Positions 36,001 to 51,000 of a DNA stretch of 64,000 nucleotides are shown here, piece by piece; the stretch's first letter is position 1; the number at the start of each line of letters is the position of its first letter. A program made the position numbers. Source of the DNA: an uncultured bacterium (GTDB lineage: Bacteria > Babelota > Babeliae > Babelales > Vermiphilaceae); NCBI GenBank assembly GCA_963707655.1, contig OY970172.1, positions 320,001 through 384,000 of the forward strand, given 5' to 3'.

Positions 36001-39000
36001 AGATAAATTACTATTTAAAACAAGCATTAAACACTCTTATCCGCACTGTTGGCGCTGCCACAATGGCCTTATTTTCCGTGCAACCAAACAATGGTTCTGC
36101 GATTTGTCAAAGAACGATTTAAAAAATAAAACATTGCACGCGATCGATACCATTACCAACTATCCGGAAAAATCAAAAAATAGGCTGAAGGCAACGGTGG
36201 AAGGGCGTCTGGAATGGTGTTTGTCGCGCCAGCGTATTTGGGGAGTACCAATTCCGGCGTTACTGTGTGCTTCATGCGATTGTACCTATACCAATCAACA
36301 ATTTATCGCTCATGTTGCGAAGCAGATTAAAAAAGAGGGAGTCGAATATTGGGATCGCGCCACATTAGAAGATCTTTTTGGCAATGATCGTTTGCGCTGT
36401 CCGCGCTGCTCGCAAGAGAATTGGATCAAAGAAAAAGATATTCTTGATGTATGGTTCGATTCGGGCATTAGCCATTTTGCGGTGCTTGAGAAAAATCCGG
36501 CGCTCCGTTTCCCTGCCGATATTTATTTAGAAGGCAAAGATCAGCATCGTGGCTGGTTCCAGAGTTCATTGCTCACCGGTATGGTGCTTGAAGATACAGC
36601 CCCCATGAAAGCAATTCTTACCCATGGCTTCACGGTGGATCAACAGGGAAGAAAAATGTCAAAATCATTGGGCAATGTCGTGTCGCCCGAACAAATGATT
36701 AAAGATTTGGGGACCGATGGGTTGCGTCTGTGGGCCGCGAGTATCGATTATGCAGATGATGCAGTTGTATCGCCCGTGCTCCTTGCTAATGTAAAAGAAG
36801 TGCTTCGTAAAATACGCAACACCTGCCGCTTCTTGCTTTCCAATCTGTATGATTATCATCATGAAAAAGACGCGTTGGCCTATAATGATCTCCTGCCAAT
36901 CGATCGACTCGCGATTGAGGAATTGCACCGCTTTAATGAAAAGATGGTGGCATTATATGAAAAATATGATTTCACCGCTCTATTTCATGGTCTTGCTGAT
37001 TATTGCTCAAGCACATTGAGTTCATTTTATCTTGATATTATTAAAGATCGTTTATACGTAGAGCAAAACAATGGTGTGTTGCGCCGTTCTGCGCAAACAA
37101 GCTGCTGGTATATTCTTGATACTTTGACTCGACTAGTTGCGCCAATTTTATCTTTTAATGCTGAACAAATTTCTGATTTTTATCAAAAAGGTAAAAAACA
37201 GTCTATTCATCTGCAATCATTTGCGTATATCCCCTCATTAATTGAGTTGTTGGCTCACAGCAATATGCTTGCAACCCCCCCTAGCCGACCACGCGGGTCA
37301 GAGATCGAGCGGGCAAAGACGCGCTTGGCAATTGATACTATTGCCCTGCAAGAGCAGTTGGTGATGTTTGATATGCAGTGGGATACGCTCAAAGCAATGC
37401 GCTCAGCAGTATTAAAAGCCATAGAGCAGCTGCGCGAGAAGGGAATTATTAAGCATTCATTAGAGGCGAAAGTAACCCTTTATTTTGATGCGGCTGCGCC
37501 ATGGAACGACGCGCTACGAGAATTCATTAATGCATTAAAGCGCACGGCGCAAACAGAGATGACCTTCTTTAAAGAATTTCTCATTGTTTCGCAGGTAACT
37601 TTTGCACAAGATCATCAAACATTACAGTCAACCGATGTTGCCGGTTTTTTTGTTGGTGTTGAAGTTGCGCAGGGTAATAAATGCCCGCGCTGCTGGAATT
37701 GGGATCAGACAAATGATGTTGATCATCTGTGCAATCGGTGTATGAAATTGATAAGAAAATAGTTTTCGTTTATAAAATGGAAAGATCTTCTCATGGATTA
37801 TAAATTTTATGGCATGGCGTTGTTGTTTTTATCATGTGGCGCTACGCAGGCAATGGACAATCATCGTCCTCCGATGCAGCCGACAATTAATCTGCCGCTT
37901 GCTTGTGCGGGGCACATACAACCATGCGTGAAGGGATGGAAGTCCCTTTCTGATAAAGAACCAGAAAATTCTTTAGTTCTCGATAGTTTAGGGCGTGGCT
38001 CGTCTACATGGCATGATCGGGACGATGAAACAGTCTACTCTTCGCGTCAAACCATTAAAAATTGTTCAGATTCATATGTTATAAACTATACAAAAGATGG
38101 ACAGGACAATGAATTGAAAATTGGAGATAAACCAACATATTTAGCCCTGAATGCAAATAAAACAATATTGTTGGTTGAAGGCATTGAACTGGCAGTTGAG
38201 TCTGGGGACTGGTGCGATCTTGTTGCTGTGGTTTTAGCAACAAACAAACTATACAAACTTGATGAATATAACGGATCATGTGCCAGTTTTAAACATGCAA
38301 TTGGATTCGATGGAAACAAAGCAGTGGCACATTATAATTTTACCCGTCAGGAATGGGATCTTACTTCTCTCTTGCCGGAATAAGATTTGATACATCCCAC
38401 CCAAACAAAATCAATCTAAAGAGAGCCCCTGTTGCAAAAAATGGGGGCTCTTTCTTTGTTCATTACGATCTCTATGCATGATCACTTCATAGCATATTTG
38501 AGTTGTTTTATATATTCAATGTGAAATTATGCAAGTCCATGGCTTTTTGACTGTTTTCATATATTTTTATAAAATATTATTTGTTAGTAATTTTGCTCAG
38601 ATAAAGAATAACTAGAGCCAGAAAATAGAATTGCAAGGACCTTAAGATGAAAAAGACATTATTCGTCATCCTATCGCTGGCTTGCCACAGTTGCTGGGCG
38701 ATGGTCGCAGTTGAAGACGCCCCATTCGGTCAGTTGGCTCTGTTTGACCATGGATTTCAACCGGGTACACCGCTGCCACCCGTTGGAGAAGGGGATGAAC
38801 TTGCACAATGGGCGATGCGGGAGGCAGTTTCTACGCCTGATGCAGCAAACAGCATCGATGCAGTATTGTCTGCAGAGCAAAAGAAAGAAGTCTCTGCTCT
38901 TCATGCAGCATCTTTGGTTACGGTAAAAAAAGGAATGAAAAAGAGAAAAATAGCGAGAAGCGCGCTGTGGTGCGAGGAATGCAGATGTCGGGCAGTAAAT

Positions 39001-48000: not shown

Positions 48001-51000
48001 GAGCTGTATGCGAAAAATATCTATAAATCACAACTGTGCCATTGCCTTACAGTAACTATGCATCTCACCTGTATGGTTATGCCCGTCTCGCGCGTCTGGT
48101 AGCAGTTCTATGCGCAGTGGTGTTGTTGTGTTGAGTAAGATGTGTAACAATATCAGTGCCATACTGGCACGTTTTATACGTATATTCATGAAGGTACCAC
48201 GCTAAGAGCGGTAGTCCGGTAGCACGCTTCTTGGTCACCGCCAATCGAGCTATTTTTAAGTTTTTGGGCGCTCTTATATCCAGAGGCTCTGTATTGGCAT
48301 TGAGTCTACTGGCGTTTGTGAGCAGCCAATTCAATCTCATCTGTTATTGCCAGATCAATTTCTTGGGCAATGGCAAGGGAAAATGTGCTGATTATGAATA
48401 GTATAATTATTTTTGGCATCATTATTCGTATGATTTCATGTATTGCGTGACTGCCTTAGCTTGCCCTTAAAACGATTCTTTATCAAGAGTAGATAAAAAG
48501 AAATTCTATGCGCCATTCAAAGACGCATAATTCTTACCCTTATGTTAATTCTTCTCCTCCTGCTTATTCAAACAACAAAGAACTCAGCCAACAGTGATAC
48601 AAGAAAGTATAAAAAGGACTGACCCTTGCTCAACTATTACTGATACATGTCATCATTGAAACCAAGAAGCTCCCCGTAATAATACCCGAGCAGTCATTGG
48701 TTCAAGGACCGTTGGAAAAAACATCTAACATGGTAAGTATTAAAAACCCTCAGCAAGACTCACCCGAAGTGCCAAAGGAATTAACGCAAGTTGTCTACAC
48801 GCAACAACTCTTTAATGGCCTTCCAGAATCAATAAGAAAGTATCTGTCTACTGTGGCGAGTCCACAACCTGTTCCTCAATCAATACAAAAGAGTATTGAC
48901 AGAATTGTGCGAGCGCACTAGATAGAGCCATACATTCGGGAGGGCAGGGGTTCTCTGCGGGCCCCTGAATGGGATCAACCACTTCTGGTTGTCTAGGCGT
49001 TATTGTTGTGCTCGTAAGGTTTGCAAGTCAATCGGTGCCACGCGTTCGGCGGCAGTTCTATGTTTGGCGCTATTGTTGTGTGAGGTAAAACGTTCGCGCC
49101 GATCAGTGCCATACTCGCACGTTTTACACATATATTCACGAAGGTACCACGCTACTTGCGGTAGTCCAGTAGCAGCTCTATGCGCAGTACTGTGGTTATG
49201 TTGAATAAGATGTGAAAAAACATCAGTGCCATACTTGCACGTTGCACACGTATATGCACGAAGGTACCACGCTACTTGCGGTAGTCCGGTAGTAGTTCTA
49301 TGTTTGGCGGTGTTATTATGTTTAACAAGGTCTGCAGGCTGATCAGTGCCATACTTGCAAATCTCACATATATATTTACGCTTACGCCACGTTGAAGCAA
49401 CACGCTTTTTGGTAGCTAATCGAGCCGCTTTTAAGTTTTTGGATACTTTTACGCTCGTGGGCATGGGCTTTGCATCAGCATTTACTTTCCCTATGTTTGC
49501 CAGTATAGTAACAGCCAATTGAATATCACCGATTCTTACTGGATTGACTTCTTGAGCCATTACCAGAGAAAATGTGCTGAGTATAATTATTTTTATCATC
49601 ATCATCATCATCATAGTTTCATTTTCCGTGCTCGTTTATGTGTGCAACTGCCTTAAACCAATCTTGCGTGGGTGATGAATTCTAGCTTGCCTTTTAAATG
49701 ACTTTTTATCAAGAACGAGCGACCTAAAAATACAATATGTCATATAAGGGCGCATAATTCATTGCCATTATGTCAATAAAGCCCGCCTGCTCATTCAGAC
49801 GAAAAAAGCTAAACTAACAGCGATACAAGATGATATAAAAAGGACTATTACATAATGTATTCTTAATCGGAAAAAATAGTATCGGCCCGATTTTGCGAGG
49901 CAAAATGTAATAAACCATTCCATCTCATGGCTAACATTGAAAAGGCGATTACGTTTTTTATTTCCAAGCAACTTTTTTTGGGCTATACTTTTTGCCATTA
50001 ATAAAGCATTTTTTTATGTATAGGAACATTATGAAAGTATATCTATTAAAAAATATTGAACGAGTTGGTATTGCCGGAGAAATTATTAAAGTGAGCGATG
50101 GCTATGGTGCCAATTACCTTATTCCTCACAAATTGGCAGTAGCCGTCACCAGCGAGAACGAAGGATCATTTAAACAGCGCGCGCAAAGCATTGATCGCCG
50201 CAACGAAGTAATATCAACGCAAACTTCTATGTTGGCCGAAAAAATAAAATCAATTACCGTGACCTTAAAACGCAAAATGCATGATGATGGCAAGTTGTAT
50301 GGCTCGGTATCTCAAGGTGAAATTGCCGATCTTCTCGCAGAAAAAGGGGTCAGTGTTTCTAAGAGCCAAGTGGAAATCCCAAAATCAATCAAAGAAAAAG
50401 GGAACTACGAGGTAACCATTAAATTATCCTCACGCTTGCAGCCAACAATAACGCTTAAAGTAATCGCAGAATAGTACGTCATTTTTTTAAAGAGGCCACA
50501 GCAGAATGTACGCTGACCGCAACACCACGGGTAGCCTGCAAAAAAAAATTAGTACTGAACGAGTAATAGGTAAAGCACTGCCATCAAACCTTGATGCAGA
50601 AAAAGCGGTGCTTGGCGCCTTACTTCTTAATGATGAATATATGTCATTAGTAAGTGAAATTATCGTAGCAGAAGATTTTTATAGCGCACCCCATAAACTT
50701 ATTTTCCAGGCAATTTTAGATATTACTGCCCAAAGAAAGCGGATTGATCTGCTCACGTTACAAGATGAGTTAAGTCGCAGAAATCAGCTCGAGGCAATAG
50801 GGGGCGTTGTGTATCTTCTTGCTTTACAGGAAGATATTCCTGCTATTGGCCTTATTGAGCAGCATGCGAATATTGTTAAAGAAAAATCGGTGCTGCGCAA
50901 TTTAATTGGTTCAGCTGCATCAATCATTACCAATTGTTATGATCAAAACAAGGCAAGCATAGATTCAGTGCTCGATGACGCTGAAAAAACTATCTTTCAA

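Follow-up and report, generated by a model that had tools for sequence, protein, structure and literature searches.

The window, a stretch of 64,000 nucleotides, is part of a closed 1.09 Mb genome of the Dependentiae (TM6); the neighbouring IleRS matches proteins which NCBI names Candidatus Dependentiae or Babeliales, i.e., it identifies a Dependentiae bacterium. The window carries a row of zinc-finger genes. Six of these, A through F, lie head-to-tail on the forward strand (38647-44929) and a seventh, G, follows on the reverse strand (Table 1). ORFs, translations and a motif scan reproduce what a preliminary description had claimed: six tandem genes and a seventh which encode a signal peptide, an acidic stretch, a basic box and fingers. 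As to the family size of seven, the number holds for intact genes, yet an eighth, decayed copy of the G type is also present. Its signal-peptide piece (48306-48455) terminates in a stop codon. The remainder (48077-48343), in a different frame, has one degenerate finger with the first Cys changed to Tyr and an H-x4-H spacing.

Table 1. Features of the zinc-finger locus (window coordinates)
Feature	Position	Strand	Basis
g00366, 294 aa, distant member	30158..31042	+	
Strong terminator-like hairpin, 14-pair stem and T run	38420..38453	+	
Promoter-like site 72 bases ahead of gene A (TTGACT / 17 nt / TAAAAT)	38547..38575	+	consensus match only
Gene A, 385 aa, 7 fingers	38647..39804	+	
Gene A signal peptide, residues 1-18	38647..38700	+	read from paralogue alignment
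Gene A acidic N-region	38701..38925	+	alignment, charge computation
Gene A basic box KKGMKKRKIAR, residues 94-104	38926..38958	+	alignment, charge computation
Gene A finger array, C109 to H370	38971..39756	+	
Gene B, 336 aa, 6 fingers	39842..40852	+	
Gene C, 348 aa, 6 fingers	40921..41967	+	
Gene D, 385 aa, 7 fingers	41994..43151	+	
Gene E, 265 aa, 4 fingers; full-length protein model	43189..43986	+	
Gene F, 313 aa, 4 fingers	43988..44929	+	
Three small genes with pseudopilin-like N-termini, between array and gene G	46789..48055	+	
Middle pseudopilin-like gene	47226-47663	+	prepilin N-terminal methylation motif, PF07963, E 5.2e-07, over cut-off
Decayed G-type copy	48077..48455	-	
Gene G, 204 aa, signal peptide, basic box (KKRVASTWRKRK), 3 fingers, TGLPQVAWY linkers	49000..49614	-	

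Gene F is the most divergent copy, with about 50% identity to the others and a 39-residue insertion in the acidic region. Gene G is devoid of an acidic region and its N-region has a net charge of +3; it matches the family profile A5 with E 1.7e-50. The distant member g00366 has a signal-peptide-like start, a basic HGMKK stretch and two fingers at a distance of 40 residues, the second preceded by a W. The terminator-like hairpin closes the upstream gene at 37793-38383 and sets the array apart from it. Between this hairpin and the array the promoter-like site is the sole 10-of-12 match on the forward strand, and the number of such sites in the region does not exceed that in shuffles. The GC content of the array (42.9%) and that of the genome (41.3%) agree with the values given earlier. 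In the array, Tandem Repeats Finder detects 120-bp periods at 65-80% matches.

Architecture and evolution of the array proteins

The signal peptide of A comprises an MKK n-region, a hydrophobic core and C-W-A ahead of the likely cleavage site, and those of B through F are alike. A lipobox appears unlikely from these sequences because Cys13 is not conserved in C and D. The full-length model of E has a helix at residues 3-11. Signal peptides were judged by eye and by a crude rule which flags 419 of the 957 genes of the genome (44%); the rule passes 9 of the 12 finger ORFs, a weak enrichment (P about 0.03).

The acidic N-region of A (residues 20-88) has a net charge of -8 and a pI of 4.2; across A-F the pI is 4.1-4.2. 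Within the region the acidic-aromatic motifs APFGQLALFD.GF and DELAQWAM, two in number, are conserved, and there is also an Ala-rich helix, TEQKKAVAALHAAS. In the E model the pLDDT of the corresponding region is below 50; residues 54-60 and 78-90 form short helices there, and the N-region is predicted to be disordered. Two unrelated finger families of this genome have an acidic DEL..W-type motif in common. A-F all share K94, K95, G96, M97, K98, R100, I102, A103 and R104 in the basic box. Its core, KKRK, conforms to K-[KR]-x-[KR] in three of these six array proteins (A, C and E) and departs from it in the others (B, D and F). The 20 residues ahead of finger 1 carry a charge of +7 in A and of +6 to +8 across A-G.

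The array of A consists of seven 23-residue C-x2-C-x12-H-x5-H fingers joined by 17-residue linkers, one of 16 residues, of the type LEKTGQSLPDWQAYEFT. The pattern C..C.{12}H.{5}H occurs 7, 6, 6, 7, 4, 4 and 3 times in A-G, i.e., 37 fingers in seven proteins, always spaced by 40 or 39 residues and with invariant Cys and His. The arrays of A-G are basic (pI 8.0-9.8). The histidines display the signature H-x2-[SG]-[KR]-x-H, and Lys is conserved at finger positions 11 and 21. The linkers are conserved to the same degree as the fingers: W is invariant and G, Q and L reach 90% or more. Genome-wide there are 51 finger motifs in 12 ORFs, all with signal-peptide-like starts as judged by eye, where 0.19 are expected from amino-acid composition. 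Eight proteins (A-G and g00366) contain 39 of them, and the other 12 are in four further ORFs elsewhere in the genome. Thus, finger counts, spacing and the genome-wide figures of 51 and 39 agree with those given earlier, and alignment, motif scan and models bear out the architecture of signal peptide, acidic stretch, basic box and modular H-x5-H fingers with long linkers.

Paralogues differ by gain, loss and shuffling of whole fingers, as the earlier claim of diversification by finger gain and loss had it. The repertoire diversifies by gene duplication, finger loss and gain, and recombination between paralogues. Pooled over ten pairs among A-E, dN/dS is 0.34 in the N-region, 0.29 in the linkers and 0.44 at other finger positions; at the canonical contact positions -1, 2, 3 and 6, selected beforehand, it is 0.93. 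The helix contact positions evolve faster than the scaffold. The value of 0.93 reflects relaxation or a mixture of regimes and is no proof of positive selection, and it is distorted by recombination between paralogues. The diversified helix positions would be compatible with specific, not generic, binding.

Pfam curated cut-offs are exceeded by zf-C2H2_jaz in six of the seven proteins (not G), by zf-met in four (B, C, D, E), by zf-C2H2_2 in four (A, B, C, D; the top family for A and B) and by PF00096 in D only. ROS_MUCR is absent among the Pfam matches at E <= 1 for all seven. In AlphaFold models each unit is a beta-hairpin, helix, kink and helix, with a pLDDT of 84-92 in the fingers. Among solved structures, CTCF fingers match best by sequence, though weakly (E 1.1e-05); by fold the best matches are DNA-bound classical fingers such as CTCF, again weak (VIA-align Z <= 5.3). 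Foldseek returned nothing at E <= 0.001, and the fold searches are thus uninformative. In feature space the closest clusters are those of zinc-finger proteins from eukaryotes and Nucleocytoviricota (scores 0.89-0.91, weak).

Relatives within and beyond the phylum

The preliminary description had found only this genome's own proteins. This does not stand: an exhaustive HMMER search returned six metagenome proteins of the same architecture, P0129, P0271, P0150, P0168, P0196 and P0217. The first of these (E 7.3e-31) shares 38% identity over 164 residues, i.e., four fingers, in the same 40/39 register. Overall, same-architecture members in other organisms are 22-38% identical. Proteins of a same-genus genome (G001) also belong to the family, whose profile has matches in only four of the 261 species-representative Dependentiae genomes. 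As the family extends beyond this genome, it is not merely the recent neutral expansion that had been considered possible. The best full-search matches include eukaryote-like zf-met arrays with spacings of about 37-45 residues (P0124, P0133, P0142). P0265 combines fingers of this class with a GIY-YIG nuclease domain in a single fusion protein. Short contigs from soil, peat and wetland metagenomes, from three studies dated 2017-2024, are 99-100% identical to parts of the array.

Far from being a peculiarity of one genome, exported poly-finger arrays are widespread in the phylum. Of the 261 Dependentiae genomes 81 have zf-C2H2 matches, compared with 1 of 14 control genomes. At the loci inspected many matched ORFs join a finger array to a signal peptide and an acidic region, and such genes often stand in tandem rows; many of the arrays are classical, 28-residue and TGEKP-linked, on signal-peptide proteins. 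K/R boxes ahead of finger 1 are found in other Dependentiae finger proteins as well: K-[KR]-x-[KR] is present in the N-region of 12 of 29, where shuffles give 2.3, a count which includes close kin and hence non-independent proteins. The window's family is one branch of a wider theme in the phylum. In the literature searched, Dependentiae genome papers included, no mention of zinc-finger proteins of this kind was found.

Proposed function and its alternatives

As the best explanation we tentatively propose that the proteins are effectors which an intracellular Dependentiae parasite directs at its host and which mimic eukaryotic zinc-finger transcription factors; we hold this with somewhat less than even confidence. 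The proteins are probably sent into the protist host to bind host DNA or RNA, and as nucleic-acid-binding effectors they probably act in the nucleus. The Sec signal peptide would carry the unfolded chain through the inner membrane. A type II-like machinery or outer-membrane vesicles may then release it into the host cell, as genome inventory and phylum literature suggest. The whole genome encodes two secretins, a GspE/PilB ATPase, a GspF-like protein and pseudopilins; searches of the genome for VirB4 and FHIPEP returned none. Likewise, searches for DsbA and DsbB found neither, so exported Cys pairs need not be oxidised. Excerpts of the Dependentiae genome papers name type II as the sole secretion system found and regard proteins that combine a Sec signal with eukaryote-like repeats as released into the host cytoplasm (PMC4378268, PMC6561590), which is where an excerpt of the latter locates Chromulinavorax. 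Inside the host the K/R box beside the basic finger array could serve as nuclear import signal, and the fingers would bind host nucleic acid via the first half of the helix, whose proposed binding residues vary from finger to finger and between paralogues. Speculatively, the disordered acidic-aromatic N-region might recruit host factors in the fashion of an activation domain; such a reading of the acidic motifs is pattern recognition after the fact.

Regarding the target, the balance tips slightly to DNA over double-stranded RNA. The CTCF sequence matches, the GIY-YIG fusion in P0265 and the diversified helix positions lean towards DNA. Against it count the 17-residue linkers and H-x5-H, which characterise zf-met/JAZ fingers, a class described in Pfam as binding double-stranded RNA; furthermore, the TGEKP-type linkers needed for canonical contiguous DNA reading are absent in A-G.

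The first alternative is that of secreted binders of host double-stranded or structured RNA, like JAZ/ZNF346, dsRBP-ZFa and U1C. They would act in cytoplasm or nucleolus, e.g., on RNA silencing, ribosome biogenesis or splicing, and recognise backbone rather than base sequence. The double-stranded-RNA idea derives its entire basis from the zf-met/JAZ Pfam scores (four and six of seven proteins over cut-off) and the modelled H-x5-H helix-kink-helix. The His signature, the conserved Lys at positions 11 and 21 and the eukaryote-like zf-met arrays among the best full-search matches are in line with it, as is the top Pfam family of A and B, zf-C2H2_2, which presumably was built on pre-60S ribosome factors. 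However, generic double-stranded-RNA binders have no obvious need for six paralogues with differing helix positions -1, 2, 3 and 6, which evolve about twice as fast as the remaining finger. Classical DNA-reading TGEKP arrays are found in sister families of the phylum which share the signal-acidic-basic layout, and the best solved sequence matches are CTCF fingers, not JAZ or U1C. We consider this alternative unlikely.

Less likely still are secreted protein-binding scaffolds whose fingers and W-containing linkers dock on host chromatin, ubiquitin or trafficking factors, nucleic acid not being the target. Some eukaryotic C2H2 fingers are a precedent, linkers as conserved as the fingers fit such a role, the DEL..W-type motif of two unrelated finger families looks like a short docking motif, and Dependentiae repeat proteins such as ankyrins are read as protein binders in an excerpt of PMC4378268. 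Yet the arrays are strongly basic, the variable residues sit exactly on the nucleic-acid surface of classical fingers, and no search points to a partner.

We attach a low probability to periplasmic or surface proteins which serve the bacterium itself, e.g., in zinc buffering, scavenging or envelope functions, with an incidental likeness to transcription factors. Each protein would carry 3-7 zinc ions, but structural C2H2 sites bind zinc tightly and are poor donors. The sequence supports export through the inner membrane only, and signal peptides are common, by the crude rule here and equally in Chromulinavorax (44% of coding sequences according to an excerpt of PMC6561590). On the other hand, zinc storage has no use for conserved linkers, a basic box or an acidic-aromatic region, the variation between fingers sits on the recognition helix, and the same layout with canonical DNA-type arrays recurs across the phylum. 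Finally, a recent, neutral or decaying expansion of a gene from a eukaryote or giant virus without maintained function, to which one pseudogene copy, the few family-bearing Dependentiae genomes (4/261) and the weak eukaryotic and Nucleocytoviricota clusters might point, is highly improbable in view of seven intact reading frames, dN/dS of 0.29-0.44 outside the contact positions, diverged same-architecture members in other organisms, a GC content near the genome value and near-identical metagenome fragments from three studies.

Comparison with known systems

ZNF346/JAZ and dsRBP-ZFa exemplify the eukaryotic U1-like/matrin/JAZ-type C2H2 fingers (PF12874, PF12171). The window's proteins share with these C-x2-C-x12-H-x5-H, H-x2-[GS]-[KR]-x-H, the helix-kink-helix (here in a model), long linkers with fingers about 40 residues apart, Pfam scores over cut-off and similar arrays among the best full-search matches. 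They differ in being encoded by bacterial genes, with Sec signal peptide, acidic N-region and basic box. Further, the aromatic residue is at finger position 6 (C-x-Y-G), CTCF/REST-like, and not at position 8 as in JAZ-type fingers; the linker, TGQSLPDW, shows high conservation and its Trp never varies, and RNA binding is putative. With classical Krueppel/TFIIIA arrays (PF00096; CTCF, Zif268) they have in common the beta-beta-alpha zinc fold, the best, if weak, solved matches (CTCF E 1.1e-05, fold Z about 5), variable residues at -1, 2, 3 and 6 and a TG helix cap after the second His. In contrast, the period is 40 residues, not 28, the linker has 17 residues and is not TGEKP, H-x5-H replaces H-x3-H, and PF00096 is over cut-off only in D. 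The TGEKP-array proteins of other Dependentiae share the phylum, the arrangement of parts from signal peptide through mostly an acidic region and often a K/R box to the finger array, and tandem paralogous genes; their fingers are canonical, with a 28-residue period and H-x3-H, and their N-regions have no detectable homology to those of the window's family.

The TAL effectors of Xanthomonas and Ralstonia consist of 33-35-residue helical repeats with repeat-variable di-residues, are delivered by type III secretion and have a C-terminal NLS and acidic domain. The concept is the same, i.e., a host-delivered bacterial protein whose tandem repeats form a modular array for nucleic-acid binding and which also has nuclear localisation signals and an acidic activation domain, all putative here, and a repertoire which evolves by repeat gain, loss and shuffling. 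The folds are unrelated, type III delivery contrasts with the lack of FHIPEP among our genome matches, and the NLS and acidic domain of TAL effectors are C-terminal. According to an excerpt of PMC12488382, MoHTR1 and MoHTR2 of the rice blast fungus are secreted signal-peptide C2H2 proteins which enter the host nucleus and reprogram transcription, MoHTR1 using a short basic NLS. Signal peptide and C2H2 fingers are shared, with nuclear entry known for MoHTR and predicted here; the MoHTR proteins come from a eukaryotic pathogen with a eukaryotic secretory route and possess a single finger domain, no arrays. Ros/MucR proteins, described in part of PMC9779718 as bacterial DNA-binding proteins with a Cys2His2 zinc site, resemble the window's proteins in bacterial origin and in this site, for which zinc binding is predicted here, yet they are single-domain cytoplasmic regulators without signal peptide or repeats.

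Architecture of the zinc-finger family

ORF listing and a motif scan bear out the layout given in a preliminary description of this region, i.e., six head-to-tail genes (A to F, the array) and a separate seventh (G). Its GC values, 42.9% for the array and 41.3% for the genome, hold as well. On recount 39 of the 51 C-x2-C-x12-H-x5-H motifs in the genome reside in A to G and in g00366, a distant two-finger member, again as described. The 51 motifs are spread over 12 ORFs; 0.19 would be expected from amino-acid composition. The gaps within A to F measure 1-68 bases, and the array DNA has a periodicity of 120 bp (65-80% matches). 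From A to F no convincing terminator was found between genes. Hairpins at 40094, 41173, 42240, and 43441 were rejected as terminators because they belong to one conserved coding stretch which recurs in B to E.

Features of the array and its surroundings (window positions)
Feature	Position	Strand	Content	Basis
Gene A	38647-39804	+	7 fingers	ORF listing, motif scan
Gene B	39842-40852	+	6 fingers	ORF listing, motif scan
Gene C	40921-41967	+	6 fingers	ORF listing, motif scan
Gene D	41994-43151	+	7 fingers	ORF listing, motif scan
Gene E	43189-43986	+	4 fingers	ORF listing, motif scan
Gene F	43988-44929	+	4 fingers	ORF listing, motif scan
Gene G	49000-49614	-	3 fingers	ORF listing, motif scan
g00366	30158-31042	+	two further motifs, 40 residues apart	
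Strong terminator-like hairpin	38420-38453		closes the gene upstream of the array	
Promoter-like site	38547-38575		ahead of gene A	
196-aa ORF	37793-38383	+	signal-peptide-like start	
583-aa protein	45016-46767	-	convergent to F	

Three pseudopilin-like genes, one with a prepilin methylation motif, lie between the array and G. A decayed copy adjoins G: its signal-peptide piece ends at a stop codon, the remainder lies in another frame, and the first Cys of its finger is gone. Contamination by eukaryotic DNA is rejected, as the array is located inside a closed 1.09 Mb contig between the genes for IleRS and those for a pseudopilin, L9, and DnaB. The 196-aa ORF directly upstream of the array has its own strong terminator and no Pfam match. 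The 583-aa protein starts with a hydrophobic anchor or signal and has acidic stretches that resemble coiled coils; its long middle part is of low complexity and rich in Pro, Ala, Gly, and Lys. Pfam gave no match above cut-off.

According to the alignment the order of parts in A to F is a putative signal peptide (MKK-hydrophobic-CWA), an acidic region, a basic box, and a basic finger array. By eye, the n-region at the N-termini of the family is basic, the core hydrophobic, and the c-region of small-x-small type. All seven proteins and g00366 pass a simple, crude signal-peptide rule. By this rule 9 of the 12 finger ORFs have signal-peptide-like starts compared with 419 of 957 genes, a weak enrichment. 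A lipoprotein reading was rejected since C and D have another residue in place of the signal-peptide Cys. The acidic region is about 70 residues long, with a pI of 4.1-4.2 and a net charge of -8 to -16; an Ala-rich helix and two acidic-aromatic motifs are conserved in it. The box KKGMK.R.IAR is invariant, K-[KR]-x-[KR] occurs within it in A, C, and E, and the last 20 residues ahead of finger 1 carry a charge of +6 to +8. The finger arrays are basic (pI 8.0-9.8). G possesses the signal peptide, the box, and the fingers, and is devoid of the acidic region.

All 37 fingers of A to G have the form C-x2-C-x12-H-x5-H with a period of 40 or 39 residues and a linker of 17 or 16. In the 30 units of A to E the finger scaffold is nearly fixed (Cys, His, Y6, G7, K11, L/F14, N/D15, S20, K21), as is the linker LEKTGQSLPDW. 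Entropy maxima in these units are at finger positions 8-10, 12, 13, and 16. An AlphaFold model of two units, built with 25 paralogous rows (mean pLDDT 80), has a hairpin, a helix, a kink, and a helix per unit; the two helices span, e.g., H18-25 and H28-34. In the full-length model of E the fingers reach pLDDT 84-92. The N-region, residues 17-107, has two short helices and a pLDDT below 50; it is therefore probably disordered.

The preliminary description had found zf-met in Pfam and had placed zf-C2H2_jaz below cut-off. Whole-protein HMM scores against the curated cut-offs uphold the first and correct the second. For zf-C2H2_jaz (PF12171, cut-off 22.6) all of A to F are above cut-off (A 27.5, B 34.8, C 25.5, D 36.5, E 43.7, F 22.8). 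For zf-met (PF12874, cut-off 21.2) this applies to B (27.7), C (22.6), D (50.4), and E (38.8), with A (16.2) and F (16.7) below. G matched neither of the two. The curated score, the C-x2-C-x12-H-x5-H spacing, and the modelled helix-kink-helix after the hairpin are shared with U1-like zf-C2H2_jaz/zf-met fingers. Classical Krueppel-type fingers differ, having a 28-residue period, a 7-residue linker of TGEKP type, and H-x3-H where this family has a period of 40/39, a linker of 17/16 residues, and H-x5-H. Ros/MucR proteins are cytoplasmic regulators with a single finger, whereas the proteins described here have 3-7 fingers behind a signal peptide; ROS_MUCR is absent among the Pfam matches at E <= 1 for all seven. 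The best solved relative by sequence is CTCF (E 1.1e-05). Foldseek gave 0 matches against the PDB at E <= 0.001, and VIA-align returned many DNA-bound classical fingers with Z up to 5.3. Such matches reflect a common fold, are silent on function, and do not separate DNA from RNA.

Relatives and recurrence in the phylum

The neighbouring IleRS matches proteins named Candidatus Dependentiae or Babeliales by NCBI. With protein D as query 1 of 40 relatives was matched, a genome of the same genus (G001), in which three tandem signal-peptide proteins have one or two fingers each and a similar AGQPRALW linker. An earlier search had returned only proteins of the same genome at E <= 0.001. This does not stand: an exhaustive HMMER search with the family profile against 1.84 billion representatives yielded 1355 matches at E <= 0.001, 131 at <= 1e-10, and 9 at <= 1e-30, members from outside included. 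The whole architecture is common to six of them (P0129, P0271, P0150, P0168, P0196, P0217): all have the signal peptide, the acidic-aromatic motif, the Ala-rich helix, the basic box, and H-x5-H fingers which are spaced at about 40 residues and are each preceded by a Trp. P0129 and E are 38% identical over 164 residues, a single 39-residue step included; P0150 links the A-F and G subtypes. P0129, P0271, and P0217 are recorded from ENA metagenome contigs 5.5-14 kb long. The enlarged family profile matches only four of 261 Dependentiae species genomes (G000, G001, G007, G012). A profile search with one family alignment (A5) gave three rows, two from the same genome. Another (A1), run against genome and metagenome contigs, gave pattern matches and no relative. 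P0129 had a weak chance match among genome contigs, a Winogradskyella record, and none among metagenome contigs. The 71-aa fragment P0134 is identical to the first 59 residues of gene B and different thereafter. Either a sequencing error accounts for it, or it is a frameshifted copy from a further assembly of this organism or one very close to it.

Other good HMMER matches are eukaryote-like zf-met arrays with similar spacing (P0124, P0133, P0142). Five further proteins (P0265, P0144, P0139, P0148, P0226) join an N-terminal GIY-YIG or GIY-YIG-like nuclease domain, confirmed by Pfam for P0265 only, to long-linker H-x5-H finger arrays. In the Atlas, Nucleocytoviricota zf-met clusters are among the nearest neighbours of protein D as weak rows, and viral contigs contained no match to P0144. 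An origin from giant viruses is not claimed on these weak rows and the empty scan.

A profile of the single 40-residue unit matched 28 of the 261 Dependentiae genomes. Behind these matches are many signal-peptide proteins whose arrays are of the classical kind, with a 28-residue period, TGEKP linkers, and 2-13 fingers (loci L011, L014, L015, L019, L020, L022, L023, L025, L027, L028, L031, L034, L036). Their genes are often tandem paralogues, four in L025 and three each in L034 and L023. Pfam zf-C2H2 occurs in 81 of the 261 genomes (49 of 145 genera; 59 genomes above cut-off) compared with 1 of 14 control genomes. G053 and G155 are among the genomes with more than 100 first-look zf-C2H2 candidates. 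In zf-C2H2 proteins which pass the crude signal-peptide rule the stretch from signal peptide to first finger is mostly acidic. K-[KR]-x-[KR] precedes the fingers in 12 of 29 such Dependentiae proteins versus 2.3 expected from shuffles, a count inflated by close kin.

The same genome carries a second, unrelated exported finger family at contig positions 725791-730057, three tandem genes for proteins of 399, 524, and 440 aa with signal-peptide-like starts (MKKYIL...). Their 85-residue repeat consists of one H-x5-H finger and a C-x-C...H-x-C element. The acidic C-terminal tail, EDLREWL or DDLDEWL, resembles the DELAQWA motif of the A-G family by a pattern set post hoc. A 158-aa ORF at contig 301490-301963 has one H-x5-H finger and starts like a signal-peptide protein. 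C2H2-like fingers in widely spaced pairs are present in signal-peptide proteins from four tandem genes at L043 (G012:C1) and in a 649-aa signal-peptide protein with internal repeats at L047 (G001:C31).

Divergence of the paralogues

The closest DNA match of each finger is almost always in another paralogue (0.8-0.93 identity) and not in its own gene, and the best partners shift along a gene: fingers 2-5 of B are closest to D, the last one to E. This indicates gene duplication followed by unit loss and recombination. The preliminary description had proposed diversification by gain and loss of fingers; the finger DNA comparison adds gene duplication and recombination between paralogues.

Pooled Nei-Gojobori dN/dS values were calculated for the ten pairs among A to E with contact positions fixed beforehand; a first grouping by entropy-picked positions was discarded as circular. 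The ratio is 0.34 for the N-region, 0.29 for the linkers, 0.44 for other finger positions, and 0.93 for the canonical contact positions -1, 2, 3, and 6. Because of this pattern across regions we conclude that the frame is under purifying selection and the recognition surface is changing fast, which falls short of proof of positive selection.

In soil, peat, and wetland metagenomes from three studies short contigs are 99-100% identical to parts of the array; parts devoid of such cover do not count as absent. None of the six runs listed with such matches was an RNA data set. A 272-base contig (run X4) joins 41909-42075, the start of D, to 39924-40028, the N-region of B, with 32 letters shared at the joint. 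It may come from another population with a rearranged or recombinant paralogue, or it may be an artefact of assembly across a repeat.

Predicted export, possible targets, and comparison with known systems

The genome, a single contig of 1,091,075 bases, is 88.6% complete by marker genes. It contains type II-like parts, i.e., two secretins, a GspE/PilB ATPase, a GspF-like protein, and a prepilin-type N-terminus beside the array, which could equally serve a type IV pilus. VirB4, FHIPEP, DsbA, and DsbB were not found in this contig, a closed genome which exports many Cys-rich proteins. A second T2SSE (GspE/PilB-type ATPase) match at contig 764698-765845 is broken by in-frame TGA, TAG, and TAA and may be a pseudogene or a sequencing error. 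By the simple rule about 44% of the crude gene calls have signal-peptide-like starts. The literature of the phylum fits this picture. In the Babela genome paper type II is the only secretion system reported, and signal-peptide ankyrin proteins are considered most likely secreted into the amoeba cytoplasm (PMC4378268). In a comparative study of TM6 genomes the core genes include type II components and gspD in two copies (PMC4776705). Chromulinavorax is described with signal peptides on 44% of coding sequences and with cells within the host cytoplasm (PMC6561590).

The family is read most economically as a set of effectors directed at the host and modelled on zinc-finger factors of eukaryotes. 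The proteins would be exported by Sec, released through the type II-like system or in vesicles, enter the nucleus, where nucleomodulins act, by virtue of the basic box and the basic fingers, and bind host nucleic acid with the variable face of the helix; activation or docking may be the task of the acidic-aromatic region. The architecture and its conservation across organisms, the recurrence in the phylum, the secretion inventory, and the selection pattern are observed; beyond export across the inner membrane each step is one we infer.

RNA could be the target, to which the zf-met/jaz scores in Pfam, the H-x5-H spacing, and the long linkers point. The diversified contact positions, the sister families with canonical DNA-type arrays, CTCF as best solved relative, and the nuclease fusions argue instead for DNA or other specific targets. 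Returning to the effector reading, we tentatively consider a wider version, which is possible though rather doubtful. Dependentiae as a phylum would rewire the gene expression of protist hosts with exported mimics of C2H2 transcription factors, a large arsenal that evolves fast. The layout of the mimics would be a signal peptide, an acidic activation-like region, a nuclear import box, and a finger array, and the A-G family would be a new architectural form of it. A rigid, Trp-anchored 17-residue linker would then set one finger per 40 residues, and instead of contiguous triplets successive fingers might recognize structured RNA or sites separated by about one turn of DNA.

Among the transcription factors of eukaryotes C2H2 arrays constitute the largest class, and the domain is the archetype of a programmable DNA reader. 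Such arrays are usually regarded as almost missing from bacteria, the single-finger Ros/MucR type excepted. Here an obligate intracellular bacterium and about one third of the genomes of its phylum encode C2H2 arrays behind export signals. Should these reach the host nucleus they would be a new class of effectors in a phylum of parasites which is distributed worldwide and poorly understood. They would also offer a testable way for bacteria to reprogram protist hosts and a natural test case for target recognition by arrays with unusually long, conserved linkers. The findings also bear on gene exchange among eukaryotes, giant viruses, and bacteria within one host cell.

A search of the published literature found no description of C2H2 fingers in Dependentiae/TM6 or of secreted bacterial poly-C2H2 proteins. 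In the main texts of three papers, the supplements of which could list domains, 'zinc' and 'finger' occur zero times and once (a RING finger) for Babela (PMC4378268) and zero times each in the TM6 comparison (PMC4776705), and 'zinc' occurs once, for a transporter, in the Chromulinavorax paper (PMC6561590). The nearest functional analogue in print is MoHTR1 and MoHTR2, a fungal pair of secreted C2H2 nuclear effectors (PMC12488382). Because the search found no such proteins and the nearest analogue is fungal, the family would be classed with a known kind, the eukaryote-like-domain effectors of intracellular bacteria, and be new in its C2H2 arrays. If the wider version of the effector reading is true, the family would be a second natural modular and potentially programmable nucleic-acid-reading effector system of bacteria beside the TAL effectors. 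These consist of 33-35-residue helical repeats with repeat-variable di-residues and use type III secretion, whereas the repeats described here are 40-residue zinc fingers.
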